Notes: a model not told the origin generated them from the letters alone. Positions 5,107 through 43,852 are shown, numbered from the stretch's first letter. The stretch: DNA of 64,000 nucleotides from Anaerolineae bacterium (GCA_034432655.1 DAOUBP010000162.1:18827-82826); one strand, 5' to 3'. Made by a program: numbers and translations.

Positions 5107-5167
5107 TCAATGATCAGGTGTCAAGGGTCAGAGGTCGGCCCTGGCTTCTGACCTCTGGCTCCTGTCT
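5107..5167. repeat. Degenerate head-to-head heptamer array
   Basis: TCAGGTG TCAAGGG TCAGAGG followed by complementary-type TGACCTC TGGCTCC units. Confidence 0.45.
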
Positions 5168-5582
5168 ATTCCTGCTCAGCTCCTTGTACCAACGCTTTCA
5201 CCAGGTCGCTGCTGGAGACGACGCCGGCCAGCTTATGCTCTTCGATGACGATGGCGTTCTGGATGCCGACACGCGCCATGAGTTGAGCCACAAAAGGCAA
5301 CCGCAGATTGGGATTCACCACGATCAGCGGCTTCACCATCACATCGGCCACACGAGTGCGCGTGGGAGGCAGCGATCTGGCGATCACGCGGTAGACCACC
5401 TCCTGAAAGGTGAGAATGCCGTAAGCATCATCTTCGTCGGCCCGATCCACAATGGCCACCTGGCAGTTGCACGCCACCATCTTCTCAACAGCTTCCTGAA
5501 CCGTGGCCAGAGGGGAAATGAGGATGAACTCACGGTTCATCACATCTCGCGCACGTAATGAATAGATCTGGTGGGTGTCCAT
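5166..5582 (-). CDS. CBS domain pair protein
   Basis: ARDVMNREF, ATVQEAVEKM, YGILT, VADVMVKP, LAGVVSSSDLV. Confidence 0.88.
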   Translation of the reverse strand: MDTHQIYSLRARDVMNREFILISPLATVQEAVEKMVACNCQVAIVDRADEDDAYGILTFQEVVYRVIARSLPPTRTRVADVMVKPLIVVNPNLRLPFVAQLMARVGIQNAIVIEEHKLAGVVSSSDLVKALVQGAEQE

Positions 5583-5763
5583 AAATCAGGCTCCTTGACC
5601 TGAGGTAACAGGTGATCGTTCGCGTGTACCGGCGTAGCTCTCATCCGCCATGGCCGGCTGTAGACGGCCTCAGTCTAGCACGAAGAGCCGATCTCGACAA
5701 CTTTTATTCACGAACTCAAACCGGACACTGTAACCTTCCCGGGACTTGTGCATCATAAAAATC

Positions 5764-5783
5764 GGCTTGTGAATAATCAAGCC
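5764..5783. promoter_or_regulatory. Palindromic candidate operator in a divergent promoter region
   Basis: GGCTTG-TGAATAAT-CAAGCC perfect 6-bp inverted repeat in the AT-rich gap between the CBS gene and prx. Confidence 0.35.
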
Positions 5784-5844
5784 AACATATTGACCGTTCG
5801 CCGTTGACTGAGAAGTTCTATCCTTACCAGGAGGTTGATCACAA

Positions 5845-6501
5845 ATGGAACCTACACAAGCCACACCTGTATCCCTGCCGCGCCTGAACGAGCCGGCACC
5901 CGCATTCGAGGCCGTCACCACACACGGCGTTATCCGCCTGGCGGACTACGAAGGCTCATGGTTGATCCTGTTCTCGCACCCGGCCGATTTCACACCGGTC
6001 TGCACCACCGAATTCATCGCTTTTGCCGAGATCTATCCCGAGTTGCAAAAGCGCGGGGTAGAGCTCCTCGGCCTGAGCATTGACAGCGTATACTCGCATA
6101 TCGCCTGGCTGCGCAACATCGAGGAAAAGATGGGGGTTAAGATCCCGTTCCCGATCATTGCAGACCTGGACAAAAAGGTCGCAACCCTCTACGGCATGAT
6201 CCAGCCAGGGGAGAGCAACACCGAGACTTCGCGCTGTGTCTTCATCATTGATCCCAAGGGCATCCTGCGCGCGATGATCTACTATCCGCTGAGCCTCGGC
6301 CGCAACATGCAGGAGATCCTGCGGGTCATTGACGGCCTGCAAACCGCCGACAAATATCAGGTGGCTATTCCTGCCAACTGGCATCCCGGTGACAAGGTGA
6401 TCGTCCCGCCGCCGAAGACGATGGAGATGGCCGAGGAACGCCTGGGGGCCGGTTACGAGTGTGTGGACTGGTACCTCTGCCGGAAGACGTTGGAAGGTTG
6501 A
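5845..6501 (+). CDS. Peroxiredoxin (Prx6/1-Cys-type family)
   Basis: FSHPADFTPVCTTEF, GLSIDS, FPIIAD, GRNMQEILR, PANWHPGD, C-terminal CVDWYLC. Confidence 0.95.
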   Translation: MEPTQATPVSLPRLNEPAPAFEAVTTHGVIRLADYEGSWLILFSHPADFTPVCTTEFIAFAEIYPELQKRGVELLGLSIDSVYSHIAWLRNIEEKMGVKIPFPIIADLDKKVATLYGMIQPGESNTETSRCVFIIDPKGILRAMIYYPLSLGRNMQEILRVIDGLQTADKYQVAIPANWHPGDKVIVPPPKTMEMAEERLGAGYECVDWYLCRKTLEG

Positions 6502-6505
6502 ACTG

Positions 6506-6733
6506 ATGGCCTGCGTCAATGCTGATGGCACCCTGACGAAGTCGGCACAAGCTGTCTTGGAGGCGCTGCGGGAACCTGCCACGCCGCCTGAGGTCGCCAT
6601 GAAAACGGGGTTCCCGCTTTATCGCATCCGCAGCAGCCTGCGTGAGTTGAAAGAGGCCGGCCTGCTGGATGAACAGCTCGACGGCCGCTATCATCTAACC
6701 GTTGCCGGGTTGGAACGGATCGGCGCGAAGTAG
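6506..6733 (+). CDS. Small winged-helix protein with N-terminal Cys (MACVNADG...)
   Basis: ATG at 6506 just after the prx stop; TPPEVAMKTGFPLYRIRSSLRELKEAGLL...GRYHLTVAG wHTH pattern. Confidence 0.8.
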   Translation: MACVNADGTLTKSAQAVLEALREPATPPEVAMKTGFPLYRIRSSLRELKEAGLLDEQLDGRYHLTVAGLERIGAK

Positions 6734-6763
6734 CCGCTCACATCCTGCAGGTTGTGAAGTCCG

Positions 6764-6812
6764 GAAGAAATGTTTCGGCGGACAGTTTTGCTATCCGCCG
6801 AAACATTTCTTC
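6764..6812. terminator. 19-bp perfect inverted repeat between convergent genes
   Basis: GAAGAAATGTTTCGGCGGA / TCCGCCGAAACATTTCTTC with 11-nt loop, between the wHTH gene and metF. Confidence 0.7.
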
Positions 6813-6835
6813 GGCCATCTGTTCAGCACGGTTTT

Positions 6836-7819
6836 TTACACCACCGGCCGCGGGTACAACCCCAGCATCTCGCACACCTGCGGCACGGCCGCCGGCCAGC
6901 TCACGGCCATGATGTGGAGGCCGCGCACGCCTTCGATCTCCCGCACCTGGTTGGCGATCTCGCAGCAGATGTCGAGCCCGGCCTTCTGCTGATCTTCCTT
7001 CGACTTCCCTTCCAGCCGCTTGATCACCCAATCCGGCACGTCCATGCCCGCCACTTCGTTCTTCATGTACTCGGCCGCGCGCAGCGAACGCACCGGCCCC
7101 ACCCCGGCCAGGATGACAACTTTCTCGTGCAGTCCCAGGTCCACCACCCGCTTCATGAACTCCCGGAACCGCTCGACGTTGAAGATCAGTTGCGTCTGGA
7201 TGAACTGCGCGCCCGCCACGATCTTCTTCGCCAGCCGATAGGGGCGGTATTCGTACGGCGGCGCAAACGGGTTTTCCACCGCGCCGATGAAAAAGTCGGG
7301 CGCGATCTTGGGGATCGGCTTGCCGTTCTCGAAAACTTGATTGTCGCGCATCATGCGTGCCATGCGGATCAAGTTGATCGAATCCATGTCGTACACCGGC
7401 TTGGCCTGCGGATGATCCCCCCAGATCGGATGGTCGCCGCTCAAGCATAGGATCGTGTTGATGCCGAAGACATACGCGCCCATCATGTCGCCCTGGATCC
7501 CCAGCCGGTTGCGATCGCGACAGGTGAACTGGACCACCGGCTCCATGCCGGCTTGCTTCAGCATGATGCCCACCGCCAGGCTGGAGACATGCACCATGGC
7601 CGATTGGTTATCGGTGACGTTGTACGCGTCGCCGTAGCCCTTCAGGGTCTTGATCTCGCGCTGGATCGCCTCCAGATTCGGGCCAACCGGTGGCGACACT
7701 TCGACGCACACCGGAAAATGCCCTGCCGCAATGACCTTTGCCAGATTGCTGCTCATCCCTTTCAACCCGGTTTGTACCGGAGCGGGTGCCGCAGGCGGAG
7801 TCAGTATAGGTGCGTTCAT
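6836..7819 (-). CDS. metF: Methylenetetrahydrofolate reductase, large subunit
   Basis: VEVSPP, YNVTDNQ, QFTCRDRNRLGIQGD, LCLSGDH, KKIVAGAQFIQTQ; start set at ATG 7819 overlapping the metV stop. Confidence 0.93.
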   Translation of the reverse strand: MNAPILTPPAAPAPVQTGLKGMSSNLAKVIAAGHFPVCVEVSPPVGPNLEAIQREIKTLKGYGDAYNVTDNQSAMVHVSSLAVGIMLKQAGMEPVVQFTCRDRNRLGIQGDMMGAYVFGINTILCLSGDHPIWGDHPQAKPVYDMDSINLIRMARMMRDNQVFENGKPIPKIAPDFFIGAVENPFAPPYEYRPYRLAKKIVAGAQFIQTQLIFNVERFREFMKRVVDLGLHEKVVILAGVGPVRSLRAAEYMKNEVAGMDVPDWVIKRLEGKSKEDQQKAGLDICCEIANQVREIEGVRGLHIMAVSWPAAVPQVCEMLGLYPRPVV

Positions 7820-8322
7820 TTGCCCTCCTGCGGAAGCACTTCGGTCGCATAGCGGATCGTCTTGTCCGAGCCGGTGGTGATCTGATCGCGGCCCAGAGCA
7901 TAGGTGACCCACGATGCCTGGCCTTTGAGCTGCCAGTCCACCGGCGGGTTCAGGCGCAAGATCTCGGCTGCATAGGGTGTCTTCTGGGCACGCTCGATGG
8001 CCTTGACCCATACGCAATCCATCTCCGGTTTGACCTCGCACTTGCCGTCAAGGCGCACGCCTCCGCACGGACCGTTGCGCAGGTTCTTGGGGCAGTTCAT
8101 CGGGCAGGTCATGCCGGTGTAATGCAACACGCACTGTGCGCAATCCTGGCAATTGAAAAGGGCCTTCTTCACGATTTCCTCCGGCACCTTGACAAGCCGT
8201 GAGGAGCGTTCCATGCCCAACTTCTCGAACAGTGGTTTGATCCGCCGCAAAGTCCACGCGGTCGCCTCCCACGCCCAAACAAGAGGGGTGGGGCGGTCTT
8301 GCCAAAAATCTCGTAACGCCAT
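7816..8322 (-). CDS. metV: MTHFR small Fe-S/Zn subunit MetV
   Basis: CQDCAQCVL...CPMNCPKNLRNGPCGG...CEV...CVW; directly upstream of metF. Confidence 0.88.
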   Translation of the reverse strand: MALRDFWQDRPTPLVWAWEATAWTLRRIKPLFEKLGMERSSRLVKVPEEIVKKALFNCQDCAQCVLHYTGMTCPMNCPKNLRNGPCGGVRLDGKCEVKPEMDCVWVKAIERAQKTPYAAEILRLNPPVDWQLKGQASWVTYALGRDQITTGSDKTIRYATEVLPQEGK

Positions 8323-8353
8323 GGTGGATTTCCTTCCGTTGAAGTGCTGAGTT

Positions 8354-8420
8354 GACGAATGACGAGTGACGAATGACGAACGACGAATGACGAACGACGA
8401 ATGACGAATGACGAAGGACG
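8354..8420. repeat. Tandem heptamer array (GACGAAT/C)n
   Basis: About 9 units GACGAAT/GACGAGT/GACGAAC/GACGAAG. Confidence 0.9.
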
Positions 8421-8442
8421 GTGGTTTACCCGATGGCACTCT

Positions 8443-8880
8443 TCAGGCCAGGTCGGCGCCGAAAGGATCGTGTTCTGGCTCGATCGTATACGTTACTTGC
8501 GCTTCACGCAGCCAGGGTTGCTCGGGAACGAGGGTCTTGCGCATGGTATGCAGTTTGGCGACCAGCAATTCGGCATGCTGATAGGCGGCTCGAAGCGCTG
8601 TTTTGTCTTGGATCAGCTTGCGGCGATTGATGATATGCTGACAGGCTACCGATTCAAGCACTGAACGGATCGCCAAACCCAAGAAGCGTGCCTGTTCGGC
8701 ATCAGTTTGACCGGTAGACCCTTCCGCAATGTTGAGCGCCACTGACGTTGCCGCTCTCGTAACCTGCGACTTGAGGTTGTATTCCTCGCTCTTGGGCAGT
8801 TGCGCAGCAATCTGATCTATCAGATCAATATACTCCAACGCCAACCGCCACACCTCAAGCTGCTCGAACTTGAATGGCAT
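8443..8880 (-). CDS. Four-helix-bundle protein (23S rRNA IVP / bAvd-like family)
   Basis: FEQLEVWRLAL, LPKSEEYNLKSQVTRAATSVALNIAEGS, RFLGLAIRSVLE. Confidence 0.92.
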   Translation of the reverse strand: MPFKFEQLEVWRLALEYIDLIDQIAAQLPKSEEYNLKSQVTRAATSVALNIAEGSTGQTDAEQARFLGLAIRSVLESVACQHIINRRKLIQDKTALRAAYQHAELLVAKLHTMRKTLVPEQPWLREAQVTYTIEPEHDPFGADLA

Positions 8881-8990
8881 CTTCGTCCCTCGCCCTTCGT
8901 CTTTCGTCTTTCGTCTTTCGTCCTTCGTCCTTCGTCTTTCGTCCTTCGTCCTTCGTCCCTCGTCCTTCGTCCCTCGTCCTTCGTCCCTCG
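8881..8990. repeat. Tandem heptamer array (TTCGTCC/T)n, inverted relative to the 8354-8420 array
   Basis: About 15 units CTTCGTC/TTTCGTC/CCTCGTC. Confidence 0.9.
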
Positions 8991-8991
8991 T

Positions 8992-9876
8992 CTACGCAAG
9001 GCCATGCTGCAGCTTGAACGCGCGCACCGTATTCGTCAGCAGCATGGCGATCGTCATCGGCCCCACGCCGCCGGGGACGGGGGTGATGTAACTTGCCACC
9101 TCGACCGCCTCGCTGAACGCGACGTCGCCCACCAGGCGGAACCCGCTCTTCTTGGTGGGATCGTCAATTCGATTGATGCCGACATCTATGACCACTGCGC
9201 CGGGCTTGATCCAGTCCCCGCGCACGTACTCAGGCCGGCCGATGGCTGCTACCACGATGTCTCCCCGCCGCACCTTGTCGGGTAGATCGCGCGTCTTGCT
9301 GTGGCAGACGGTGACCGTGGCGTCGGCGTTTTGCAGCAACGCTGCCACCGGCACACCCACGATGTTGCTGCGGCCCACCACCACCGCATCCTTCCCGGCG
9401 ATCTCGATGCCGGAGCGGACGAGCAGCTCGATGCAGCCGGCCGGCGTGCACGGGATGAACTGCGGCGTGCGTCCCTTCATGACCAGTTGGCCGATGTTCA
9501 TCGGATGGAATCCATCCACGTCCTTGTCCAGGCTGATCAGGTCAAGCACGCGCTGTTCGTTCAACCCTTTGGGCAAAGGCAGCTGCACCAGGATGCCGTT
9601 GACGGTCGGGTCGGCGTTGAGGGCGCGCACCAGGTCCTCCAGCTCCGCCTGGCTGATAGTCGCCGGCAGGCGATGGGTGATCGAACCCATGCCGGCCTCT
9701 TCACACGCCTTACCTTTAGAAGCCACATAGGTCTGCGAGGCCGGGTTGTCGCCCACCAGCACGGCCGCCAGGGTCGGCACCTGGCCGGTCAGCGCCTTGA
9801 GCCGGGCCGCTTCGGCCGCGGCCTCCTGGCGCACGGCTTCGGCGATGGCCTTGCCGTCAATAAGTTTCGCTGTCAT
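8992..9876 (-). CDS. folD: Bifunctional methylene-THF dehydrogenase/cyclohydrolase
   Basis: [59 protein letters not shown]. Confidence 0.98.
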
Positions 9877-9898
9877 GGATTGCTCCTTATGACCAGTT

Positions 9899-9968
9899 GT
9901 TGGGATGTTAGATATTGGATATTAGATGTTGGCGGTCACGCTAATACCTGATACCCAATACATACCCA
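9899..9968. repeat. Head-to-head heptamer array (ATATTRG)n ... (CYAATAC)n
   Basis: ATGTTAG ATATTGG ATATTAG ATGTTGG then CTAATAC CTGATAC CCAATAC. Confidence 0.7.
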
Positions 9969-9972
9969 TTTC

Positions 9973-10884: not shown

Positions 10885-10898
10885 GGTGTGACTCCTTT

Positions 10899-12263: not shown

Positions 12264-12283
12264 CGTGCGCCTCCTTGCGCAGA

Positions 12284-12330
12284 CTGGAAGCTGGATACTG
12301 GAAGCTGGATGTTAGCTTCCAGCTTCCAGC
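12284..12330. repeat. Head-to-head heptamer array (CTGGAAG)n ... (CTTCCAG)n
   Basis: CTGGAAG CTGGATA CTGGAAG CTGGATG then CTTCCAG CTTCCAG. Confidence 0.75.
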
Positions 12331-12344
12331 CCCCAATTTTCGTC

Positions 12345-13256
12345 CTACACCCTCAGATACGAGTCCGCGTAGATCACTTTGTTCAGCAAGATTTGGACCG
12401 TCTTCCAGATGGCAACCTGATCGGGATCAGAGAAGTCCACCTTGTCGGGGCTGAGTTCCTCGCCGGCTGCCACCGCATCGTGCAGGGCCAGGACCAGGCG
12501 CCCCACCGGGGTGCTGTCGTCCCGCTGCTCCACGATGCGGATGAACTCCGCCAGTTTGCGATCCAGGGGGTCGGCGATCATCATGTTCAGCCCGGCACCC
12601 ATTAACATGACGCAGTAGACGCGGTTGATCAACGGTCGCATCTCGTTGGGCACTGCGTTGGAGACGTTGCTGAGGCCCACCTGCACCCCGGCCCCGGTCA
12701 CTTGCAGCGTGCGCACCGCTTCGATGCATTCCGGGACATACTCCTGGCAACCGCTGACGGTCAGCACCAGGGGATCAATGATCAGGTCCTCCAGCGGCAG
12801 GCCGACCTCCTCACAGCGCGGGATGAGGTACTCCAGCGCGATGTTCACCCGCTCTTCCGCGCTGACCGGGATGCCCTCGCTTTTCATGGTCAAAGCGATG
12901 AGCTTGGTGTTGTACTTCTTGGCCACCAGCGGCACCTTTTCCAGCCGTTCCGGCTCGGCCGAGGTGGAGTTGATGATGGGCTGCTGTTTGACGATCTCGC
13001 AGGCCGCTTCAATGGCCGCCAGGTTGGTGGTGTCCAGGCTGAGAGGCACATCCACCACCTCTTGCACCGCGCTGACCAGCCAGGGCAAGATCTCATGCCC
13101 TAATTTCTTCTGCGGGCCGATGTTCAGGTCAATGGCCCAGGCGCCCGCCTCGACCTGTTTTACGGCCAGGTCCTGGAAAAACTTGCGATCGCGATTCGCC
13201 AGGGCCTCCTTGACCCTGGGAGAAAGGATGTGGATATTCTCGCCGATGATTTTCAT
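12345..13256 (-). CDS. acsE: Methyl-THF:corrinoid Fe-S protein methyltransferase (pterin-binding TIM barrel)
   Basis: IIGENI, AIDLNIG, LSLDTTN, IINSTS, IIDPLVL, GLSNVS; inside the acs cluster. Confidence 0.88.
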   Translation of the reverse strand: MKIIGENIHILSPRVKEALANRDRKFFQDLAVKQVEAGAWAIDLNIGPQKKLGHEILPWLVSAVQEVVDVPLSLDTTNLAAIEAACEIVKQQPIINSTSAEPERLEKVPLVAKKYNTKLIALTMKSEGIPVSAEERVNIALEYLIPRCEEVGLPLEDLIIDPLVLTVSGCQEYVPECIEAVRTLQVTGAGVQVGLSNVSNAVPNEMRPLINRVYCVMLMGAGLNMMIADPLDRKLAEFIRIVEQRDDSTPVGRLVLALHDAVAAGEELSPDKVDFSDPDQVAIWKTVQILLNKVIYADSYLRV

Positions 13257-13286
13257 TGGTTTCCTCCCGTTGGATTAGGTGACGAA

Positions 13287-14075
13287 TCACCCGACATACT
13301 GCAGCGCCTCACGCGCTTCCTTGCGCACCACATAGGCGCGATCCCATTCATATCGCTCATCCTCGCCCAAGATACGGCGCAGGATGGCGCCCAGCTCCCA
13401 ACGCTCGCGCGCAGTCATATGGCCGTGCTTGGCCAGCTTGCCAAGGCTGCGCACCGCCTTGGCCCGGATGCCAGGGCTGGTGTCGGCCAGATTGCGGATC
13501 AACTGTTCCTGGAACCCAAGCCGGATCTCCTCAGGGAGCTGACCGGCCGGGATGGATTCCGCAAATTTGCCGATGGCGCGTGTGGCCGTATCGCGCAACT
13601 CCTGGTCAGGCGAACTGGCGGCCTCCAGAGCAATGTGCGCTGCCTTGACGATCTCCGGCGACTTGATCTTGCCCAGCGCATACAACAGGAAGGCACGGCA
13701 CGAGGGATCCGGACAGGTGGACTCATACTCGGCCAACAAAGGCGCGATAGCCTTGGCGCCCATCCAGCCCAGGGCCTGAGCGATCGCCATCTGGGCCTTG
13801 ACATCACCGGCCTCCAGGCTGGCGATCAGGCTGGGGATCACGGCCTCACCCAGGCTGGCCGTCACCATGATCGCCTCTTCGATAGCCGGTACATGCTCCG
13901 GATGATCCAGCGGATCAATGTAAAACAACGGCAGGATCAACTCGCAAAGACGTTGCGCATCTTCCGGGGTAGCCGTGGGCGTTGCCGCTTTCACCAGTGC
14001 CAGGCCTTGCAGCAACTCGGCCGGGTTGTGACTGGACAACAGCTCTCCTATCCGCCGATAGGTTTCCTCCTGCAT
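13287..14075 (-). CDS. HEAT-repeat protein
   Basis: Repeated AIAQALGWMG, LLYALGKI, ATRAIGKF, AVRSLGKL helical units. Confidence 0.8.
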   Translation of the reverse strand: MQEETYRRIGELLSSHNPAELLQGLALVKAATPTATPEDAQRLCELILPLFYIDPLDHPEHVPAIEEAIMVTASLGEAVIPSLIASLEAGDVKAQMAIAQALGWMGAKAIAPLLAEYESTCPDPSCRAFLLYALGKIKSPEIVKAAHIALEAASSPDQELRDTATRAIGKFAESIPAGQLPEEIRLGFQEQLIRNLADTSPGIRAKAVRSLGKLAKHGHMTARERWELGAILRRILGEDERYEWDRAYVVRKEAREALQYVG

Positions 14076-14099
14076 GCTTCTTCCTCCTCTTCGTCTCCT

Positions 14100-21086: not shown

Positions 21087-21113
21087 TCCAGCACCCAGCT
21101 TCCAGCTTCCAAC
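21087..21113. repeat. Short heptamer array (TCCAGCT)n
   Basis: TCCAGCA CCCAGCT TCCAGCT TCCAACT; same class as the 12284-12330 array. Confidence 0.55.
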
Positions 21114-23475: not shown

Positions 23476-23496
23476 GACGGTGAACCTCCTTTGCGT

Positions 23497-23640
23497 TGCG
23501 TATTACGTACTGCGTACTGCGTATTGCGTGCTGCGTATTTCGTATTGGAAACTACGCCTTTATTGTCTGCTGGATTTCCCTGCTCCTGCTTTCTAGCTCC
23601 CCACTTTCCCAGCTTGTTTTCTGGTTTGCCTCGCTTCCTT
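23497..23640. repeat. Heptamer array (TGCGTAY)n followed by a degenerate pyrimidine-rich 7-periodic tract
   Basis: TGCGTAT TACGTAC TGCGTAC TGCGTAT TGCGTGC TGCGTAT TTCGTAT (23497-23547), then a CT-rich tract 23575-23640. Confidence 0.75.
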
Positions 23641-25061: not shown

Positions 25062-25144
25062 GACAAACGACGAAAGACGAAAGACGAAAGACGAAAGACG
25101 AAAGACCAAACCGTCCTTCGTCCTTCGTCGTTCGTCCTTTGTCA
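25062..25144. repeat. Head-to-head heptamer arrays (GACGAAA)n-(TTCGTCC)n with no enclosed gene
   Basis: GACGAAA x5 plus variants, then TTCGTCC TTCGTCG TTCGTCC TTTGTCA. Confidence 0.9.
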
Positions 25145-27464: not shown

Positions 27465-27535
27465 TACTGCGTATTGCGTGCTGCGTACTCTCCTGAAACC
27501 TGACGACGATCGCGCAACACGCAATACGCAGTACG
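27465..27535. repeat. Head-to-head heptamer array (TGCGTAY)n ... (RTACGCA)n
   Basis: TACTGCG TATTGCG TGCTGCG then CGCGCAA CACGCAA TACGCAG. Confidence 0.75.
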
Positions 27536-30448: not shown

Positions 30449-31027
30449 TCATAACAGCTGATCCGCCAGCACGATGGCCTGCGCCACCTCGGCCAGCTTA
30501 CGATTGGTATCCTGGCTCTGACGTTGAAGCCGACGGAACGCTTCCTCTTCGGTCAGGTTGAGACGGCGCATCAAGATGCCTTTGGCCCGCTCGATCACCT
30601 TGCGCGCCTCCAATGCCTCGCGCAGGTCGGCCACCTCTTGCCGCAGAGCTTGAAATTCACGAAAACGCGCCAGGGCCAGGGTGATAGCCGGCAACAGATC
30701 CTCCTCGGCCACGGGTTTCATCAGATAGGCCGAGACGTTGGCGCGGGCGGCCCGTTCTACCAGCTGTGATTCACTGTACGCGGTCAAGAGGATGATGGGG
30801 ATGGGCCGCATTTGCGTGATCTGCTCGGCCGCCTCGATCCCATCCATGACGGGCATCTTAATGTCGAGGATGGCCAGGTCCGGTTGTGTCTGTCGCGCCA
30901 GAGCCACCGCTTCTGCGCCCGTGGTCGCTTCAGCAACCACCTGGTGGCCCAACGCCGTCAACTGGGCTCGCAGGCTGAGCAGGCGGATGCTCTCGTCATC
31001 AGCGATCAAAATGCGCAGTGGCTGCAT
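30449..31027 (-). CDS. Response regulator with REC + ANTAR RNA-binding domain (PdtaR/EutV-like)
   Basis: ILIADDE, PDLAILDIKMPVMDG, YLMKP; EARKVIERAKGILM...EEEAFRRLQRQSQDTNRKL. Confidence 0.96.
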   Translation of the reverse strand: MQPLRILIADDESIRLLSLRAQLTALGHQVVAEATTGAEAVALARQTQPDLAILDIKMPVMDGIEAAEQITQMRPIPIILLTAYSESQLVERAARANVSAYLMKPVAEEDLLPAITLALARFREFQALRQEVADLREALEARKVIERAKGILMRRLNLTEEEAFRRLQRQSQDTNRKLAEVAQAIVLADQLL

Positions 31028-31030
31028 CGT

Positions 31031-32212
31031 CTACTTGTAAAAGACCAGGGTGACCTGACTGCCGCCGTTTTTCCCGGGCTCGAAGCGCAACGTGCCGGCC
31101 AGATCTTTTTCCACCAGAGTACGCACGATCTGCAGGCCCAGCCCGCGCGTGCGGCCGATGTCGAAATCGGAAGGCAGCCCCCGGCCGTTGTCGCTGACCG
31201 TCACCGTCACCTGGGGGCCCTCCTGTGCCAGGCGGATTTCCAGCCGGCCGTGCTGTCCCACAAAACTGAAGGCGTGCTCCAATGCGTTGGAGATCAGCTC
31301 GTTCATCACCAGGGCCAGGGCCGTAGCCTGCTTGGATGGCAGGTAGATCGGCGGCCCCTCAATGATGGCTTCCACGCGTTGGTCCGGCCGCACCAGGTGG
31401 CGCAGCGAGATGTCGCATACCTGGCGAGCCAGCTCGGTGATATCGGTCAGCCGGATGTTCTCTGCCGAAAGGAGTTGATGCACTGCTCCGATGCTTTTGA
31501 TGCGCGTAATACTGTCGCGTAGGCTCTTGCGCGCAGCAGGGCTGGGGCTGGCCGACATCTCCAGGCTCAAGAGGTCTGCCACGGTCTGCAAGTTGTTCTT
31601 AATGCGATGGTGCATTTCCTGGAGCAATGTGGTCAGCGCCTCAGCCTGACGCGCCTCCTCACGTAGCCGCATGTTCTCCAGCGCAATGCCCATCTGCGCA
31701 GCTACGGAGCGCAACAGTGCCATGTCGCCCTCACTGAACGGCGCGCCCTGGCGATTGGCGACGTGCAGCACCCCCAGGGCGCGCTCTTTTGCCAACAACG
31801 GCACTGCGGCACATGCATAGCCCCGGTAACGACGGCAGCCGTGCTGGAGCACTTCGGCCGCCTGCTCTGCGCCCAATGCGGTAAAAGGATCGCCCGCGAC
31901 GGCAACCAGGTCGCAGGCGCAGAACTCGGCCGCTTCCGACGCACTGCCTGGGGCCCCAGGCAGCGGCTCCCCTTCAGCTGCAGCCAGGACCAGGCGGCCG
32001 GCGGCCGCATCCCATAAGTAAATGCGGCCGCTTGCCAGTTTCAAAACCGGCAACACCTGCTTCAGCGCCTGCGAGAGGGCCTCCTGCTCGGTCAGTGCCT
32101 GGTTAATCGCTGCGGCGACCGCGTAGAGGGCCGCCAGCTCACGCGTCCGTCGCTGATCTTCAGCCGACGTATTGATCTGCTGCGCGTTGACCTCTGAGAC
32201 TCCGATCCCCAT
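31031..32212 (-). CDS. GAF-domain sensor histidine kinase, HisKA_2 type (PdtaS/EutW-like)
   Basis: GAF segment (AVPLLAKERALGVLHVA), QEMHHRIKNNLQ, ELISNALEHAF, VSDNGRGLP, GLGLQIV. Confidence 0.94.
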   Translation of the reverse strand: MGIGVSEVNAQQINTSAEDQRRTRELAALYAVAAAINQALTEQEALSQALKQVLPVLKLASGRIYLWDAAAGRLVLAAAEGEPLPGAPGSASEAAEFCACDLVAVAGDPFTALGAEQAAEVLQHGCRRYRGYACAAVPLLAKERALGVLHVANRQGAPFSEGDMALLRSVAAQMGIALENMRLREEARQAEALTTLLQEMHHRIKNNLQTVADLLSLEMSASPSPAARKSLRDSITRIKSIGAVHQLLSAENIRLTDITELARQVCDISLRHLVRPDQRVEAIIEGPPIYLPSKQATALALVMNELISNALEHAFSFVGQHGRLEIRLAQEGPQVTVTVSDNGRGLPSDFDIGRTRGLGLQIVRTLVEKDLAGTLRFEPGKNGGSQVTLVFYK

Positions 32213-34622: not shown

Positions 34623-34638
34623 ATAGTTTCGGCTCTCG

Positions 34639-34647
34639 TGCTATAGT
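34639..34647 (+). promoter_or_regulatory. Extended -10 element TGcTATAGT
   Basis: Upstream of the GMC oxidoreductase gene. Confidence 0.4.
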
Positions 34648-34688
34648 GGACATGTCGCGCCGCGGCATGAGCACACGGGAGGTGCACA

Positions 34689-36305: not shown

Positions 36306-36402
36306 GAAAAGTCGACGGCCAGACCGGGATGGACGGCAGGCCACTTGACAAAGAACCGTTGCTCCATTATGCTTTTCGCCAATTGAATTCAGGGAGCATG
36401 GT

Positions 36403-36915: not shown

Positions 36916-36941
36916 ACACCGGACAGGCCGACAAAGCATGG

Positions 36942-36975
36942 ACGGCTCGCCCGAGTTGGGTGGGCCGTTTTATTT
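36942..36975 (+). terminator. Intrinsic terminator
   Basis: ACGGCTCGCCC/GGGTGGGCCGT stem (with G-U pairs) followed by TTTATTT. Confidence 0.6.
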
Positions 36976-37065
36976 GGCGCAGGTTTCGGCAATCGTCCGC
37001 TCCCCTACGTTTCCCCGCGCCACTCTATGATACATTCTGGTACACAGAGTCATAAGTCACGCCAT

Positions 37066-37128
37066 TACGCAATACGCAGTACGCAATACGCAGTACGCAG
37101 TACGCAATACGCAGTACGCAGTACGCAA
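37066..37128. repeat. Tandem heptamer array (TACGCAR)9
   Basis: Nine units TACGCAA/TACGCAG. Confidence 0.92.
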
Positions 37129-37142
37129 TCCCGGAGCCATCC

Positions 37143-39284
<2,142 letters not shown>

Positions 39285-39312
39285 TCGGGCGCAGTATTTT
39301 CAAGTGTGAAAG

Positions 39313-41187
39313 TTACCGGTGTGCCGGGCTGATCGTTATGACGTGCTGGCGCCGCTCAAGACCATGCCGATAGATCAGCCGCTGCCGCCCCCGGTCTTGT
39401 TCGAACGTCCCGTCGCTCACCGCAACCCGGTAGCCGTCAGGATACTGCAACGCTGGCACGAAGATCTCGGTGGGTGCAACGACTTGCGGGTCATGCCGAA
39501 ACTCGAACGTGAAGGTGCGACGTTTCAGGTCGAATGCCATGCGCAGCGGTTCACCGGCAACTGCCAGCGGGTAGGGCCGCACTACTGCCTGCAAGGCACG
39601 GCCGCCGGAGTTGATGTCGGCAGGGTCATCCTGTTGATCGCGACTGAAGATCGAGAAGTCCTCCCCATTCCAACCGTCGCCGTGGGCATTGGTGTTGTCA
39701 GCCGTGTAGTTCCACAGGGTGCAACTTAACAGGTTTTCTTCCACAGAACGGAAGCTGCGATCCAAAGCCCTGATCTGTGCGCCGAAGTCGCCTGTGTCAT
39801 AGGCCTTTTTGTCATCCAGGTCGAACGGGATGCCGAACTCTCCCAACAGGACCGGCATCCCGGCTCCTTCCGCCTCACGCCTGAGATCTGCGAGTTGTGC
39901 TGTAAACGACCTGCGGATAGGGCCGGGCAGGAAAATCGGTTTCCGGGTACGAACATCAACCGCCAGGAAGGGGCTGAAGTGCTTGGTCATCAGCACATAG
40001 GCGTCGTACCAGTGCGGCGCGTAGACGAAGCCTTGCGCGGAGTCGTGCCATGAGGGCAGCGAAGTGCCCGGAGGGGGTTCCAGGAAGATCACTGCTCTGG
40101 GATCAACGGCATGAATGGCTCGGGCAAAACGTTCCGCAAAGGGCCGGTAGTAATCTCTGCCGAAATCTACCGGCCGCCCTGCCACCTGGCAGAAATGGTC
40201 GGGGCGAACCAGACGCGGCCGGCCAGCAGCATCCAGATCCCATACGCCGTTCTGACGCCAGATGCAGTCGTGGCCGTCCTGCCAAACGCGTTGCCTGTTC
40301 TTGTTCAGCAAACGCGTCCCCTTCCGCTGGATGCTGAGGAGGCCTAGCTCCCAAACGCCCACTTCCTGCGCCATGCCAGCGCCGAGCAGCATCCCCTGAA
40401 AGGGGGTGGGGCAGGCGCCGAGCAGCACGGGGCCGCCCGGGGCATTCAAATCGCGGCAGCCGATGTAGCCGGGCAACGGCTCGTTCATGGTATCATAGCC
40501 GACCACGTTGGGGAGGTCTGCCAGACGCAGCGCCACCTGTTGGATCGCTGCGATATAATGCCGCTGCAGGAATTCCTGGACCGGCTCACCGGCCACCCTG
40601 GTCTCTGGCGCAAAGTCGTTCCCGCCGAAGAACAGGGTGAACATCGTGGCCGCAGCCAGCTTCCCCCCGTTGGTCGGCCAGATCATCTTGGGAAAAGGGT
40701 CGCCGTGGGTTGCGTGCACGATGGCGGCGCCGGTCTCCGCAAAACGGGTGATGTCGAACCCGACAGCTTCCAGCGTCCAACCGGGCGCGCCGTCACCGCC
40801 GGTAAAGCGGCTCCAAACATCTTGATGGGGATCAATGAAGAGGTCAATGCCGTGCTCGGCGGCCTTCTTCACAACTGCACGTACATAATCGAGATACGCT
40901 TCGTCGTAAAGGCCCGGCCCGGCGTGCTCAATGGCCTCCCAGGTGACCAGGAAACGCAAAAAGGTGAACCCCCAAGCGGCCAGGCGGCCAAGGTGCTCAT
41001 CGGCCTCGGCCAGCGGAAACGGCCGGCCGACGAACGAGACGTCTCGATGCGCGAAGAAACCCTCGCGGCGATGGGTCGCGCCGTCCGGCCGGCTGGGGAC
41101 TTTGCTGCTGCCGCCCAGGTTGACCCCGCGCAACATAAGGGTGCGGCCATATTCGTCTCGAAAATGGGGACCAGTAATGCGGATCAT
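39313..41187 (-). CDS. GH5 glycoside hydrolase (endoglycoceramidase/steryl-beta-glucosidase-like)
   Basis: LRGVNLGG, TWEAIEH, DPHQDVWSR, GYDTMNEP (acid/base), LLGEFG (nucleophile), WNYTADN; start could be 41217. Confidence 0.88.
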   Translation of the reverse strand: MIRITGPHFRDEYGRTLMLRGVNLGGSSKVPSRPDGATHRREGFFAHRDVSFVGRPFPLAEADEHLGRLAAWGFTFLRFLVTWEAIEHAGPGLYDEAYLDYVRAVVKKAAEHGIDLFIDPHQDVWSRFTGGDGAPGWTLEAVGFDITRFAETGAAIVHATHGDPFPKMIWPTNGGKLAAATMFTLFFGGNDFAPETRVAGEPVQEFLQRHYIAAIQQVALRLADLPNVVGYDTMNEPLPGYIGCRDLNAPGGPVLLGACPTPFQGMLLGAGMAQEVGVWELGLLSIQRKGTRLLNKNRQRVWQDGHDCIWRQNGVWDLDAAGRPRLVRPDHFCQVAGRPVDFGRDYYRPFAERFARAIHAVDPRAVIFLEPPPGTSLPSWHDSAQGFVYAPHWYDAYVLMTKHFSPFLAVDVRTRKPIFLPGPIRRSFTAQLADLRREAEGAGMPVLLGEFGIPFDLDDKKAYDTGDFGAQIRALDRSFRSVEENLLSCTLWNYTADNTNAHGDGWNGEDFSIFSRDQQDDPADINSGGRALQAVVRPYPLAVAGEPLRMAFDLKRRTFTFEFRHDPQVVAPTEIFVPALQYPDGYRVAVSDGTFEQDRGRQRLIYRHGLERRQHVITISPAHR

Positions 41188-41415
41188 GTCCGTTTCTGGG
41201 GTACGGCCTCCAGCCATGCGTCATCTCGACATCGGTCACGCCGTCATAAACGGATAGACCTTTTTGGGCCGCAACGATTCATTCGTACATTATTCTAGCA
41301 TCCTTTGCGGGTCGCAGCAACCCTGGCCCATCCAGTGGGGGTGCATTTTGCGTTGTGGGCAAGAAGTGGTAGAGCGTCCAGAACTGAAACACATCCCATC
41401 CAGAAAGGATGCACT

Positions 41416-42285
41416 ATGATCGTCGTCCTGGGCGACATTGCAGTAGACATCATCAGCATCTTGCGCACGCCCCTGTTGCGTGGCAGTGACGCGCCGGCAA
41501 CCGTGCAGTTGATGCCCGGGGGGTCCGGGGCCAACGTTGCCGTGTGGCTGGCGCGCCTGGGCCAGCCGGTCACCTTCATCGGCCGCGTTGGGGATGACCT
41601 TTTCGGCGCCTGGCTACGTGCGGATCTGCGCGCTGAAGGGGTTGAACCGGTGCTGATCACCGATCCGGCGCGGGGCACCGGCGTGATTCAGGTGTTGGTG
41701 GAACCGGACGGCGAACGGACCATGGTGCCCGATCGCGGGGCCAATGCCTGTTGGCAACCTGAAGAAATCCCCCTGGAGGTCATCGCCAGCGCTGAACTGT
41801 TGCACGTGGTCGGCTACATGCTGTTGGACGAGGAGAGCCGGCCCGGCGCGCTGGCCGCCATGGCGCACGCGCGCACCCACGGCGTGCCGGTCAGCCTTGA
41901 CCCCAGTTCACACGGGCCGCTGGCTCGCCTGGGGGTTTCTGGCTTCTGGGAACTGGTCGGTCGCCCCGACATCCTGCTGCCCAACCGCGGCGAAGCGCGT
42001 GCGCTGACAGGCTGCACTGCGCCGGAAGAGATGTTGGCAGCGCTCCGGGGCTGGGCGGACGTGGTCGCCATCAAACTGGACCGGGAAGGGTGTCTGGCCG
42101 CCGCGGGGAGCGAAGTTGTGCGGGTGCCGGCCGCAGAAACACACGTCGTGAACGCGACCGGCGCCGGCGATGCTTTCAACGCCGGCTTTTTAGCCGCCTG
42201 GCTGACAGGGTTGGGCCTGGCGGCCGCGTGCCGCGCCGGGGTCAGGCTGGGCACGTTGGCCGTGACACTGCCGGGTTCGCGGTAG
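41416..42285 (+). CDS. PfkB family carbohydrate kinase
   Basis: GGSGANVA, GRVGDD, PNRGEA, NATGAGDAFNAGF. Confidence 0.92.
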   Translation: MIVVLGDIAVDIISILRTPLLRGSDAPATVQLMPGGSGANVAVWLARLGQPVTFIGRVGDDLFGAWLRADLRAEGVEPVLITDPARGTGVIQVLVEPDGERTMVPDRGANACWQPEEIPLEVIASAELLHVVGYMLLDEESRPGALAAMAHARTHGVPVSLDPSSHGPLARLGVSGFWELVGRPDILLPNRGEARALTGCTAPEEMLAALRGWADVVAIKLDREGCLAAAGSEVVRVPAAETHVVNATGAGDAFNAGFLAAWLTGLGLAAACRAGVRLGTLAVTLPGSR

Positions 42286-42322
42286 AAACCGTGTGACGGC
42301 GCTGCAAGCTGGCAAACGCAGG

Positions 42323-43171
42323 TCAGGTCCGGATCAACCCCCGCAGCACCCGCAAATTCTCCACATCTTCGTGCATATCCTCGCTCTTGGGCGTCTCCAG
42401 GATCATGGGAACTTGCGCCAAACGCGGATCGTTGAGGAAAAAGCCAAACGCGGATAGCCCAAGCTCGCCGGTGCCGATGTGATCATGGCGGTCAACCCGG
42501 GAGCCGAGCGGCTTTTTGGCATCGTTGAAATGGATGCATTTCAAGCGGTCTAATCCCAGCAACCGGTCAAACTCGGCCATGGTCGCCGCATAAGCCTCCG
42601 GCGTCCGAATATCATAGCCGGCCACAAAGATGTGACAGGTGTCCAGACAAAAACCGATCCGTTCCGGTTCGCGCACCCCTTCGACCATCATCCTCAGCTG
42701 ATCGAAAGTGTAACCCAACACGGTGCCCTGACCGGCCGTTGTCTCCAGCAGCGTCAACGTCTTGTAGCCAGAGGTAGCAGCGTGGGCGCGATCCAGCCCG
42801 GCCACGATGCGGGCGATGCCGGCCTCCTCGCCGCTGTCCATGTGCGCGCCGGGATGGAGCACCACGCCCAGGATGCCGAGCTGCTCAGCGCGGGTTAGTT
42901 CGTCAATCAGCGCGTTGACCGACTTCTCCCACAGCGCATCGTCGGGAGAGCCCAGGTTGAGCAGGTAGGCTGCATGAGAAACCACCGGGCTGATGCCGGT
43001 TTCTGCCTGTGCCCGAAACCAGCGTTCAATCTCCTCCGGCGAGGCAGGTTTCTGCTCCCAGCGGTTCTGGTTCTTGGTGAAAATCTGCATGGTGTTGATG
43101 CCGATCGAACGCGCGCGTTCAAAAGCCAGGCTGAGACCGCCCGCAACAGACATATGTGCGCCAAGAAGCAT
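42323..43171 (-). CDS. nfo: Endonuclease IV
   Basis: GAHMSVAGG, HAAYLLNL, HPG, LETTAGQG, CLDTCH, HFND, DRHDHIG, ILETP. Confidence 0.96.
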   Translation of the reverse strand: MLLGAHMSVAGGLSLAFERARSIGINTMQIFTKNQNRWEQKPASPEEIERWFRAQAETGISPVVSHAAYLLNLGSPDDALWEKSVNALIDELTRAEQLGILGVVLHPGAHMDSGEEAGIARIVAGLDRAHAATSGYKTLTLLETTAGQGTVLGYTFDQLRMMVEGVREPERIGFCLDTCHIFVAGYDIRTPEAYAATMAEFDRLLGLDRLKCIHFNDAKKPLGSRVDRHDHIGTGELGLSAFGFFLNDPRLAQVPMILETPKSEDMHEDVENLRVLRGLIRT

Positions 43172-43208
43172 GTGGGTTCTCCGTGAATGTGCTGAGTAGC
43201 GCGTGCTG

Positions 43209-43763
43209 TCAATCATCTGCCGCTAACGTGAATTGCTGCACGCCGGCTGCCCGGTCCTCAACGCGGCCCATAACAAACAGCAGGGAAGACAAACGGTTCA
43301 AATAGCGCAAAGGCACATCGTCTCGCACCTCGGCCTCATGCGTCAAACGGGCCACCAGGCGCTCGGCGCGGCGGACCACGGTGCGCGCGATCTCAAGCGC
43401 TGCGCCACTGACGCTGTCGCCGGGTACGATGAACGCTTTGGGCATTTCCACCTCGGCGCCCAGTACATCAGTAACCTGCTCCAGCCAGGCAACCCGCTCC
43501 TCGGCCAGCCAGGGGGGGCGGGTGGCCGTCTCGGGCAGGGTGGCCAGGTCGGCCATCAAATTGTAGAGGTCGCGCTGCACGGTCAGGATGAGCTCGCGTA
43601 CGCGCGGATCGTGCACTTGTGCCCGTGCCAGGCCCAGAAAGGCCGAGGCCTCGTCCACGGTCCCGTAAGCCTCGGGGCGCAGCGCGTACTTAGGCACGCG
43701 CTCCCGGCCCAACACGCCCGTGTAACCATCATCGCCGGATTTGGTATACCATTTGATATCCAT
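43209..43763 (-). CDS. pduO: Cob(I)alamin adenosyltransferase, PduO type
   Basis: YTKSGDDGYT, EAYGTVDE, ARTVVRRAER, YLNRLSSLLF. Confidence 0.93.
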   Translation of the reverse strand: MDIKWYTKSGDDGYTGVLGRERVPKYALRPEAYGTVDEASAFLGLARAQVHDPRVRELILTVQRDLYNLMADLATLPETATRPPWLAEERVAWLEQVTDVLGAEVEMPKAFIVPGDSVSGAALEIARTVVRRAERLVARLTHEAEVRDDVPLRYLNRLSSLLFVMGRVEDRAAGVQQFTLAADD

Positions 43764-43773
43764 GTCACCTCAA

Positions 43774-43852
43774 GGAATTGGGAATGGCGAATGGCCGTCA
43801 TTCGTTGATTCAAGATTCGCCAATTCGCTGATTCGAGATTCGCCGCTTCGCC
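43774..43852. repeat. Head-to-head degenerate heptamer array (GAATGG..)/(..ATTCG)
   Basis: GGAATTG GGAATGG CGAATGG followed by repeated ATTCG-containing ~7-nt units. Confidence 0.6.

Follow-up and report, generated by a model that had tools for sequence, protein, structure and literature searches.

Arrays of 7-nt units and their placement

The locus considered here raises the question of why gene junctions of a single operon should hold tandem arrays of 7-nt units that are unrelated in sequence and alike in architecture, and of what links them to the four-helix-bundle gene that two of them enclose. The window, i.e., the whole stretch of 64,000 nt that was analysed, derives from a Chloroflexota genome (Anaerolineae-like), and its acs/fol/met block (3.9-30.2 kb) is a Wood-Ljungdahl (carbon-fixation) operon.

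Arrays were detected with TRF and with a separate stringent scan, the site at 5.1 kb lying under the TRF score and being seen in the sequence. The stringent scan returned 7 arrays of period 7 in the window and none of periods 8-15, whereas 20 third-order Markov shuffles averaged 0.1 period-7 arrays; the 7-nt arrays noticed in an earlier reading of the sequence alone (the sequence-only reading) are thereby confirmed. The arrays consist of tandem head-to-tail 7-nt units, extend beyond chance length, and are thus heptamer arrays of the LSSR/STRR-like kind. Their period, described in that reading as conserved, is preferred and not obligatory among the arrays of related loci: 518 kb of such loci contained 235 period-7, 55 period-8, and 70 period-9 arrays, and some of the period-8 arrays have the same architecture. 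Higher-order periods of 14 and 21 nt also occur within arrays.

Intergenic sequence makes up 10.9% of the window and harbours 11 of the 12 arrays (p = 3e-10). Eight of these 11 start within 0-7 nt of the stop codon that precedes them, and the Shine-Dalgarno sequence that follows stays free, in agreement with the stop-to-RBS placement previously noted. Occupied gene junctions are concentrated in the acs/fol/met block, as the same reading had it (9/23 vs 2/30 elsewhere; p = 0.006). The arrays therefore have the placement of LSSRs, being predominantly intergenic, situated shortly after the ORF that precedes them, and often arranged as convergent pairs.

Folding of the arrays

Local inverted pairs occur at five sites, three of which are predicted to form strong hairpins (z from -5.7 to -8.0); all features lie on the minus strand unless indicated. 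The strong hairpins comprise a class C (CTGGAAG) array in the gap between acsE and a malic-enzyme gene (12283..12330; -38.3 kcal/mol, z = -8.0), a gene-less class A (GACGAAN) array 5 nt past the stop codon between the acetyl-CoA synthase gene and a CBS-domain gene (25062..25143, TRF 25069-25143; -50.4 kcal/mol, z = -7.6), and a class B (TGCGTAY/RTACGCA) array directly adjoining the CODH stop codon in the CODH/ACS gap (27465..27535; -40.6 kcal/mol, z = -5.7). The gap separating a pyridine-nucleotide oxidoreductase gene from folD contains an imperfect class D (ATATTRG/TAGRTAT) hairpin of moderate strength (9903..9960, TRF 9903-9932; -22.8 kcal/mol, z = -3.5), and the one that separates a CBS-domain gene from an acyl-CoA dehydrogenase gene has a weak class E (GGTCAGR-like) hairpin (5107..5160; z = -1.7). 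The orthologue of the latter array in L212 (12181-12228) has about 7 units.

Four arrays are in a single orientation, so that no local hairpin is possible: a TRF-detected class C array of 3.6 units, 2 nt past the acsC stop codon (21087..21111); a TRF-detected class B array of about 7 units, 20 nt 5' of the acsD start codon (23496..23547); a class B array of 9 units on the plus strand, with a 21-nt higher-order period (97% matches), in a divergent intergenic region 14 nt 5' of the DUF255 gene start (37066..37129, TRF 37066-37127); and a period 7/8 array (GCGAATC/CGCATCA), also on the plus strand (38524..38599, TRF 38566-38599). The last, missed by the sequence-only reading, was placed by TRF, translation, and Pfam inside the DUF255/YyaL-like ORF 37143-39284, at about aa 461-486. 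The sequences at 23496..23547 and 43770..43852 folded no better than shuffles, and the fold of 37066..37129 was not significant. Mixed period 7/8 GAATGGC/GATTCGC repeats at 43770..43852 (TRF 43800-43852, period 7/8/23) begin right after the DUF2231 gene stop, and their hairpin is unconvincing (z = +0.8). The description of most arrays as head-to-head thus stands for the five local pairs and for one further pair across a gene, and fails for the four single-orientation arrays and the 43.8 kb site.

Folding also agrees with the proposal that inverted pairs give RNA hairpins, predicted to be very stable within stop-to-RBS gaps. The further suggestion that such hairpins tune operon stoichiometry is not supported. 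In a strand-specific test, counts of G.U pairs were nearly equal on the sense and antisense strands (8 vs 7), with no sense-strand enrichment, so that selection at the RNA level is so far not indicated. An Rfam scan of the window returned no rRNA or other family.

A PF05635 gene enclosed by inverted arrays

The pair across a gene consists of GACGAAN arrays at 8353-8420 and 8881-8992, which form inverted flanks of an ORF at 8443..8880 (minus strand, 145 aa). The 5' array, whose units read GACGARG on the mRNA strand and number about 16 (TRF x16), spans from the folD TAG stop to the ATG of this gene; the 3' array, with about 10 units (TRF x9.7) reading YTTCGTC on that strand, is its reverse complement and lies between the stop of the gene and the metV RBS. 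The resulting cassette (5' array, ORF, reverse-complement array) is co-directional with folD and metV, between which it sits. In the predicted fold of the whole of 8330-9005(-), the two arrays pair with each other and enclose the ORF, and this holds for the MFE and the centroid structure alike (z = -5.8).

[quoted passage not shown] Homologues fall into more than 2300 clusters (E <= 0.001), and identity is 70-96% in the best 120. Sixty-three of the 145 positions are invariant. With a near-neutral core (pI about 7.9) and an acidic tail, the protein is not obviously a nucleic-acid binder to judge by its composition, and no known catalytic motif was found in it. The window holds this single PF05635 gene although several unit classes coexist there.

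An association of arrays with four-helix-bundle genes, proposed earlier as a check, is the key result. Among GTDB loci, inverted cognate period-7 flanks were present at 27/70 PF05635 genes and at 8/316 other ORFs (OR 24, p = 6e-16); the loci were picked by similarity to the 8443..8880 protein, and the 39% of flanked genes is consequently not a family-wide estimate. The GACGA core is oriented consistently, being mostly sense upstream (30:6) and antisense downstream (30:5). Divergent PF05635 genes carry other flanking units, namely TACGCAR (L143 and L144) and TAGGTRT, which is TAGRTAT-like (L128), while three adjacent PF05635 genes in L035 have GACGATG, GACGAAG, and GAGATTG units, respectively. 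For classes C and E no cognate gene is known.

The cassette occupies the FolD|MetV junction in four further loci (L001, L002, L216, and L217) and the JAB|ThiF junction in three (L004-L006), and further operons, other Chloroflexota, and Bacteroidota contain the same array-gene-inverted-array design. In Xanthomonas, units of the GGGAATC type, the heptamer of that genus, and their inverse surround a PF05635 gene in the accB/accC gap, an arrangement present in 2/2 lineages examined. Cognate class A hairpins also stand elsewhere in cassette-bearing operons, at 25.1 kb in the window and in L001, L002, and L011. The link between arrays and PF05635 genes appears to be new, no description of it having been found in the literature.

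Turnover between relatives

The FolD|MetV junction is empty in L215 and in L212, whose FolD and MetF are 95% identical; in L214 it is occupied by a class D hairpin without a gene. At the AcsE|malic-enzyme junction, four occupant types were found over five genomes with conserved flanks, other classes replacing the class C array of the window in L002, L212, L214, and L216. The class D hairpin at 9903..9960 is missing from the corresponding junction in L212, L214, and L216, and the 5' cassette array has 4-5 unit copies in the orthologues of L001, L002, and L216 compared with about 16 in the window. Units are thus added and lost locally, and whole arrays are gained, lost, and swapped for other classes between relatives with 95%-identical FolD and MetF; their turnover at junctions is fast. 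The FolD|MetV cassette protein is 82-96% identical across copies and tracks the host genes; this cassette looks vertically inherited and, given also the accB|accC arrangement in both Xanthomonas lineages, does not move frequently.

Since unit classes recur across junctions and genomes while the junctions of close relatives differ, local slippage alone is insufficient, and a common generating or dispersing process exists; in this form the earlier proposal of a shared 7-mer-generating mechanism holds. The presence of the same classes at many junctions in many genomes indicates spread by copying and not separate local origins.

Interpretation

The best explanation, to which we assign a probability of roughly 55%, is that the arrays are REP-like palindromic repeat families and that the PF05635 cassettes correspond, on mRNA, to the intervening sequence (IVS) of 23S rRNA. 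Tandem-heptamer palindromes, a simple-sequence analogue of REP/BIME, would fill the few tolerated bases between stop codon and RBS. Inverted arrays would fold on the polycistronic mRNA into long stems that are not terminators and may block exonucleases or serve as RNase III sites, uncoupling neighbouring cistrons. The cassette stem would enclose the four-helix-bundle ORF just as the 23S IVS stem encloses its PF05635 ORF, allowing the cassette to sit harmlessly within essential transcripts. The protein is a putative class-specific partner that binds, maintains, or spreads its own repeats, in which case gene-less hairpins would be non-autonomous copies. Counted against this explanation are the single-orientation arrays, the G.U parity, the near-neutral protein core with its acidic tail and no known catalytic motif, the apparent vertical inheritance of the cassette, and the two classes (C and E) lacking a known cognate gene.

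A possible, though less probable, account is that the arrays are neutral or selfish palindromic microsatellites acting at the DNA level only, with the four-helix-bundle gene as cargo that persists or spreads along with them. Tandem heptamers would come from replication slippage and the inverted arm from fold-back template switching, ectopic copying would spread them, and they would survive only where insertion is harmless, between stop codon and Shine-Dalgarno sequence. The very fast turnover and the interchangeable occupants of one junction fit this account, as do the symmetric pairing without sense-strand G.U excess, the variable copy number, and the 14/21-nt periods. Empty junctions have merely 0-5 nt from stop to Shine-Dalgarno sequence, so that post-stop placement would follow from constraint alone. 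For heptanucleotide LSSRs, Mrazek et al. (2007; cited in PMC4679880) reported an excess and suggested that the heptamer preference stems from polymerase slippage. Left unexplained are the unit and fixed orientation proper to each PF05635 subfamily across phyla, the conservation of the protein, and the enrichment in one highly transcribed operon.

The pairing of protein subfamily and repeat unit would suit a trans-acting regulon, which we regard as rather doubtful. Each PF05635 protein would be a putative sequence-specific binder of its heptamer, as RNA or DNA, controlling translation, processing, or decay at class-bearing junctions and itself through its own flanking arrays; the repeats would be regulatory sites and not mobile elements. 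The cognate class A hairpins elsewhere in the same operons are in line with this, 2GSC, the only solved relative, was deposited with five chains, making repeated binding surfaces conceivable, and a post-transcriptional regulator was proposed for TAACTGA repeats by MacGregor (PMC4679880). However, orthologous junctions of close relatives are empty or class-switched, which would be odd for a regulon, the protein is not basic, and several classes face one PF05635 gene in 64 kb.

That the hairpins are intrinsic terminators or attenuators partitioning the operon transcriptionally is very improbable. Their predicted stems are very stable and come right after stop codons, but typical terminators, which combine a GC-rich stem-loop with a U-tract, have far shorter stems; no U-tract was found after any array hairpin, and a terminator scan listed none of them, its count (16) being close to that in shuffles (14.6).

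Templated repeat addition, one of the mechanisms suggested in the sequence-only reading, is hardly credible. A reverse transcriptase with an Avd-like four-helix-bundle protein would reiteratively copy a 7-nt template, as in telomerase or DGRs, and the product would integrate. The sharp unit-length preference and the homology, with a shared four-helix-bundle fold, of PF05635 to Avd, the DGR reverse transcriptase accessory protein (PMC10053308), speak for it. With a profile of the 8443..8880 subfamily, Avd was not matched in the PDB at E <= 0.01. The annotated ORFs of the window and the surroundings of the cassettes examined contain no reverse transcriptase or transposase; the neighbours are FolD and MetV, with no template or variable repeat (TR/VR) nearby, period-8 arrays have the same architecture, and the 14/21-nt periods suit slippage better than copying of a single template.

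A G-quadruplex or phase-variation role, which has been put forward for GGGAATC in Xanthomonas and GGGGAYT in Nostoc, can scarcely be entertained. The genomic architecture matches that of the Xanthomonas repeats (PMC4692102), but the GACGAAN, TACGCAR, CTGGAAG, and TAGRTAT units, which lack G-runs, contradict this reading, and all arrays but one lie outside coding frames, most of them downstream of genes and not in promoters.

Comparison with known systems

The architecture itself is not new, as heptamer repeats and convergent post-ORF pairs are known in Xanthomonas, cyanobacteria, and Beggiatoaceae. Cyanobacterial STRR heptanucleotide repeats occur as several classes per genome (STRR1-3) and, like the present arrays, are intergenic and tandem. 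The TAACTGA repeats of Beggiatoaceae and cyanobacteria are often found just 5' of start codons and in ribosomal-protein operons, in sets that are almost all direct (1/170 inverted; MacGregor, 2015; PMC4679880), in contrast to the inverted pairs described here, and no protein-family association has been reported for either group. Xanthomonas GGGAATC repeats are tandem 7-nt units in 2-26 copies, about 90% intergenic and on average 28 nt past the upstream ORF, with convergent (inverted) pairs at 70-75 sites per genome and with presence and copy number varying among related species (Rehm et al., 2015; PMC4692102). The window arrays follow the same pattern, but their units are not G-rich, which excludes G-quadruplexes as the feature common to both; a single operon holds several unrelated classes side by side, and the four-helix-bundle gene goes unmentioned in that study (PMC4692102).

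The comparison with REP systems concerns both repeat and gene. REP/BIME elements are short palindromic extragenic repeats after stop codons inside operons that stabilise mRNA 3' ends, and REPIN/RAYT systems combine many dispersed gene-less copies with a 'master' gene that lies between inverted repeats of the class belonging to it, each gene subfamily having its own repeat class. Dispersed palindromes (class A, 25.1 kb) and a gene between inverted class A arrays are likewise present here. The flanked gene, however, is PF05635, without known catalytic activity, instead of a Y1 (IS200/IS605-like) tyrosine transposase, and the arms are tandem heptamers instead of a unique 20-40 nt palindrome.

RNase III cuts intervening sequences out of 23S rRNA, and PF05635 proteins are encoded in some of them (bioRxiv 10.1101/2024.02.27.582315). 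The cassette lies in the mRNA intercistronic gap folD/metV and not in a 23S rRNA helix, and its stem arms are tandem heptamers. It nonetheless resembles these elements in encoding a PF05635 protein, in having complementary termini that form a predicted stem around the ORF, and in being co-oriented, embedded in an abundant essential transcript, and sporadic among relatives.

Period-7 arrays in the Wood-Ljungdahl gene block

The G+C content of the window is 58-68%, and its 3.9-30 kb region is a Wood-Ljungdahl block on the minus strand, in which Pfam searches identified metF, metV (DUF5981), folD, a pyridine-nucleotide oxidoreductase, malic enzyme, acsE, cooC, RACo, an NfnAB-like pair, acsC, acsD, ACS and CODH. 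The remainder consists of ordinary chromosomal genes (ruvB, queA, tsaD, comEC and sugar genes), and the close homologues derive from Anaerolineae/Anaerolineales MAGs.

The period-7 arrays described in the sequence-only reading were confirmed by TRF, by a scan against shuffles and by their placement. TRF matched all the sites except that at 5.1 kb, where the array is weak and was missed, still being visible in the sequence. A stringent scan of the window returned 7 arrays of period 7 and zero of periods 8-15; Markov shuffles averaged 0.1 period-7 arrays. Eleven of 12 arrays are intergenic, with an intergenic share of only 10.9% of the window (p = 3e-10). The proposed concentration in the acs/fol/met block was also borne out, since 9 of 23 junctions are filled there versus 2 of 30 elsewhere in the window (p = 0.006), as was placement between stop codon and RBS: eight arrays begin 0-7 nt past the upstream stop codon, leaving the next Shine-Dalgarno sequence unobstructed.

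The claim that most arrays are head-to-head pairs holds for those at 25.1, 12.3, 27.5, 9.9 and 5.1 kb, and fails for those at 21.1, 23.5, 37.1 and 38.5 kb, each of which has a single orientation. Folded as mRNA hairpins, the inverted pairs at 25.1 kb (-50 kcal/mol, z = -7.6), 12.3 kb (-38 kcal/mol, z = -8.0) and 27.5 kb (-41 kcal/mol, z = -5.7) are very stable, and stability drops to moderate at 9.9 kb (z = -3.5) and to weak at 5.1 kb (z = -1.7); the 43.8 kb array folds no better than shuffles. Intrinsic termination was rejected, no array being followed by a downstream U-tract or called in a terminator scan, and Rfam returned zero families anywhere in the window. ANTAR proteins, raised for window 30449-32212, act on RNA hairpins; heptamer arrays are not among their known targets, which are paired hexaloop stems.

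Superimposed on the heptamer, many arrays (23497-23547, 25062-25110, 37066-37129, 9903-9932 and 12283-12310) have a longer period of 14 or 21 nt, with the variable seventh base cycling, as in TACGCAG-TACGCAG-TACGCAA (97% matches); this cycling suggests array growth by blocks of two or three units. Arrays also occur in coding sequence. At 38524-38599 a period 7/8 array of GCGAATC / CGCATCA units is translated inside a 713-aa DUF255/YyaL-like ORF (37143-39284), and appears to be an intergenic-type repeat taken into the coding region. In L004, a contig of another genome, an inverted GGATTGC/AATCCGC heptamer pair lies inside a called P-type ATPase ORF (3683-3761), and a (CCATCCAA)12 array (13360-13457) overlaps the beginning of a GMC oxidoreductase gene, being interpreted there as a 'PT repeat'.

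A four-helix-bundle gene between the two largest arrays

The two largest arrays, at 8881-8992 and 8353-8420, are mutual reverse complements, and between them lies a PF05635/TIGR02436 gene (8443-8880, minus strand) encoding a 145-aa protein of the '23S rRNA intervening-sequence' four-helix-bundle family. In mRNA sense, the folD stop codon TAG is followed by about 16 GACGARG units up to the ATG, the ORF, about 10 YTTCGTC units and the metV RBS. When this whole cassette (676 nt) is folded, both arrays pair as one long stem enclosing the ORF (z = -5.8), with roughly six pairs and one mismatch in each unit. The encoded protein is not basic, its exact sequence has no database record, and PADLOC matched it to no defence model; the sole relative with a solved structure is XCC0516 of Xanthomonas campestris (PDB 2GSC).

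Turnover between relatives

The closest relative found, L212, whose FolD and MetF are 95% identical to those of the window and MetV 89%, has a 2-nt spacer and no cassette at the FolD|MetV junction. In place of the window's 650-nt cassette it carries ACGGAAAGGACTTTCTGAC (L212 9984-10003), and folD runs through to a new stop (..LATERTF*). This stretch resembles one GACGAAAG unit opposite one CTTTCGTC unit and may, judging from the sequence, be an excision or one-unit footprint. The same junction is empty in L215, holds a class D (ATATTRG/TAGRTAT) hairpin without a gene in L214, and carries the cassette with the same gene and array orientation in four other assemblies (L001, L002, L216 and L217), with 4-5 units versus 16 in the window. 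Divergence of the four-helix-bundle protein at this junction parallels that of host proteins (82-96% identity), so the cassette appears to have been inherited vertically there and lost now and then.

Occupancy of the AcsE|malic junction differs between genomes: the window has a class C (CTGGAAG) hairpin, L214 and L216 have class D, L002 has class A (GACGAAN), and in L212 there is an 8-mer array. The stop codon, like the RBS region GCGCAAGGAGGCGCA, is conserved in all five genomes. The window spacer just before the class C hairpin (TAGGACGAAAATT, 12337-12347) holds a lone class A-like unit (GACGAAA) which, together with the full class A hairpin in L002, suggests class replacement. In L212, a (AGTTGGTA)n 8-mer array (6568-6629) and its inverse (TACCAATG)n (8118-8140) enclose the whole 1.36 kb malic-enzyme gene; ordinary genes can therefore also have inverted-array flanks, with period 8 and the same architecture. 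Among the relatives compared, the class D hairpin before folD is confined to the window, and the class E (GGTCAGR) array is common to the window and L212 at different copy numbers.

The arrays are thus palindromic repeat families built of heptamers, with quick turnover. At empty junctions the distance from stop codon to Shine-Dalgarno sequence is just 0-5 nt, which is sufficient alone for surviving insertions to abut stop codons, and no target-site duplications were evident between occupied and empty junctions. Relevant to the expression of Wood-Ljungdahl and other large operons is that a junction with tight coupling in one strain holds a 50-110 nt hairpin in the next. The arrays also bear on annotation and metagenome assembly: the L217 contig, with a 96%-identical homologue, begins within the upstream GACGAAG array (1-36), and long arrays probably break short-read assemblies.

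Coupling of heptamer arrays to PF05635 genes

The association with four-helix-bundle genes, suggested as a check in the sequence-only reading, was upheld: inverted cognate period-7 flanks accompany 27 of the 70 PF05635 genes in GTDB loci and 8 of the 316 remaining ORFs there (OR 24, p = 6e-16). In 80 GTDB loci, collected by a search with the window's own protein family, the GACGA core is oriented in sense upstream (30:6) and in antisense downstream (30:5). Neighbours of PF05635 genes are co-oriented on both the upstream (58:7) and the downstream side (56:12). Across the classes Anaerolineae and Chloroflexia the cassette protein retains 70-78% identity and 63 invariant residues, and as it diverges the unit drifts through GACGAAG, GACGATA, GACGACA, GACGACC and GACCACA. 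The junction between a JAB-domain gene and thiF also holds this cassette, with equally oriented arrays, in another Anaerolineae MAG (L004-L006). Some homologues (P0030, P0077, P0078, P0097, P0102 and P0118 in alignment A1; L010, L012, L014 and L043) end in C-terminal tails like DEGPMTKDEGPMTKDE or TNDERRVTNDEQRMTDGE, which are translated sense GACGAAN arrays downstream of the ORF; array slippage consequently alters the tail of the protein.

The coupling extends to other units. A metagenome scan with the class B unit, (TACGCAR)3, yielded 120 contigs picked irrespective of protein content; these contain four PF05635 genes, three of them with inverted cognate heptamers on both sides. Class B flanks surround a PF05635 gene in L143 and L144, TAGGTRT flanks resembling class D do so in L128, and the L207 gene is bordered by an array on a single side. 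With the GACGA loci included, a cognate cassette is known for each of the window's classes A, B and D, and none was found for classes C and E among the loci examined through the protein-family and class B unit searches. In L035, a Caldilineales MAG contig, three PF05635 genes lie in tandem (1133-4858), each enclosed by inverted copies of a different heptamer (GACGATG, GACGAAG and GAGATTG). Divergent genes such as the third of these were missed by a narrow Chloroflexota-subfamily HMM, and were recovered as ORFs between inverted arrays with subsequent Pfam confirmation.

In Xanthomonas, accB and accC enclose the XCC0516 homologue, with GGGAATC-type heptamers running from the accB stop on and their inverse up to the accC start. 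GGGAATC has approximately 186 sites per Xanthomonas genome, 70 of which are convergent pairs, at a mean of 28 nt past the upstream ORF; the PF05635 gene is without mention in that report (Rehm et al., PMC4692102). The arrays are coupled to PF05635 genes specifically and in an oriented manner.

Interpretation and rival explanations

The most economical model, drawn by analogy with REP/BIME and the 23S rRNA intervening sequence (IVS), is that the cassette would be an mRNA-borne counterpart of the IVS, with gene-less hairpins as its putative non-autonomous relatives. A broader reading, to which we give a probability of about 0.3, is that PF05635 proteins might, throughout bacteria, serve heptanucleotide repeat families as dedicated partners, with every subfamily recognising and maintaining or spreading its own 7-nt unit. 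If true, it would explain the heptamer excess in Xanthomonas, Chloroflexota and probably cyanobacteria and Bacteroidota, as well as the function of the PF05635 family, and would define a new repeat-plus-protein genetic element living in operon transcripts and rRNA.

A selfish or neutral origin of the arrays at the DNA level stays a serious rival, because G.U pairs show no sense enrichment (8 sense versus 7 antisense by stop, Shine-Dalgarno and ORF criteria, at low power, since an orientation could be assigned to just 22 of the 74 hairpins), the protein is not basic, and transposase and reverse transcriptase (RT) are absent from the window and from beside the cassettes. Another serious rival is a pure 'regulon', in which the PF05635 protein is a repeat-binding regulator. 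Of the mechanisms advanced in the sequence-only reading, hairpins and a shared generating process were retained, and RT-templated repeat addition was rejected, since neither the window nor the neighbourhood of any examined cassette yielded an RT. A G-quadruplex reading was rejected from the unit sequences, and is disfavoured as a general explanation since the PF05635 coupling also holds with non-G-rich units.

The specific, oriented cross-phylum coupling gives an experimental handle on the heptamer excess and PF05635 alike: Xanthomonas campestris can be cultured, carries ~186 GGGAATC sites and has a solved protein structure (2GSC).

Comparison with known systems

In many bacteria heptamers are, as has been recognised since 2007, the long simple repeats with the strongest over-representation, and to our knowledge nobody has explained this excess; the only attribute we know of for PF05635, a large and widespread family, is that some members lie within 23S rRNA IVSs, Avd, the accessory protein of DGRs, aside. 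Several heptamer classes per genome are a feature of cyanobacterial STRR sequences. The heptamer excess is already described (Mrazek 2007, via PMC4679880). Post-ORF placement and convergent pairing (PMC4692102) and a suggested post-transcriptional role (PMC4679880) are also published, so the arrays as first noted are a new instance of a described phenomenon. What appears new is the coupling of repeat to PF05635 gene, for which no precedent was found in the open-access literature, absence there not being proof.

REP/BIME elements are post-stop palindromes which stabilise upstream mRNA segments, and their master copies flank the gene of the REP-associated transposase (RAYT); the cassette, lacking a Y1 transposase, is not a member. 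In the 23S rRNA IVS, RNase III cuts the stem and the loop can encode a PF05635 protein (bioRxiv 10.1101/2024.02.27.582315), whereas the cassette lies outside rRNA and is not an IVS proper. Nor is it a DGR, being without RT, and the array hairpins, devoid of a U-tract, are not intrinsic terminators. By analogy, the system formed by array and PF05635 gene would work like REP/RAYT and the IVS, belonging to neither.
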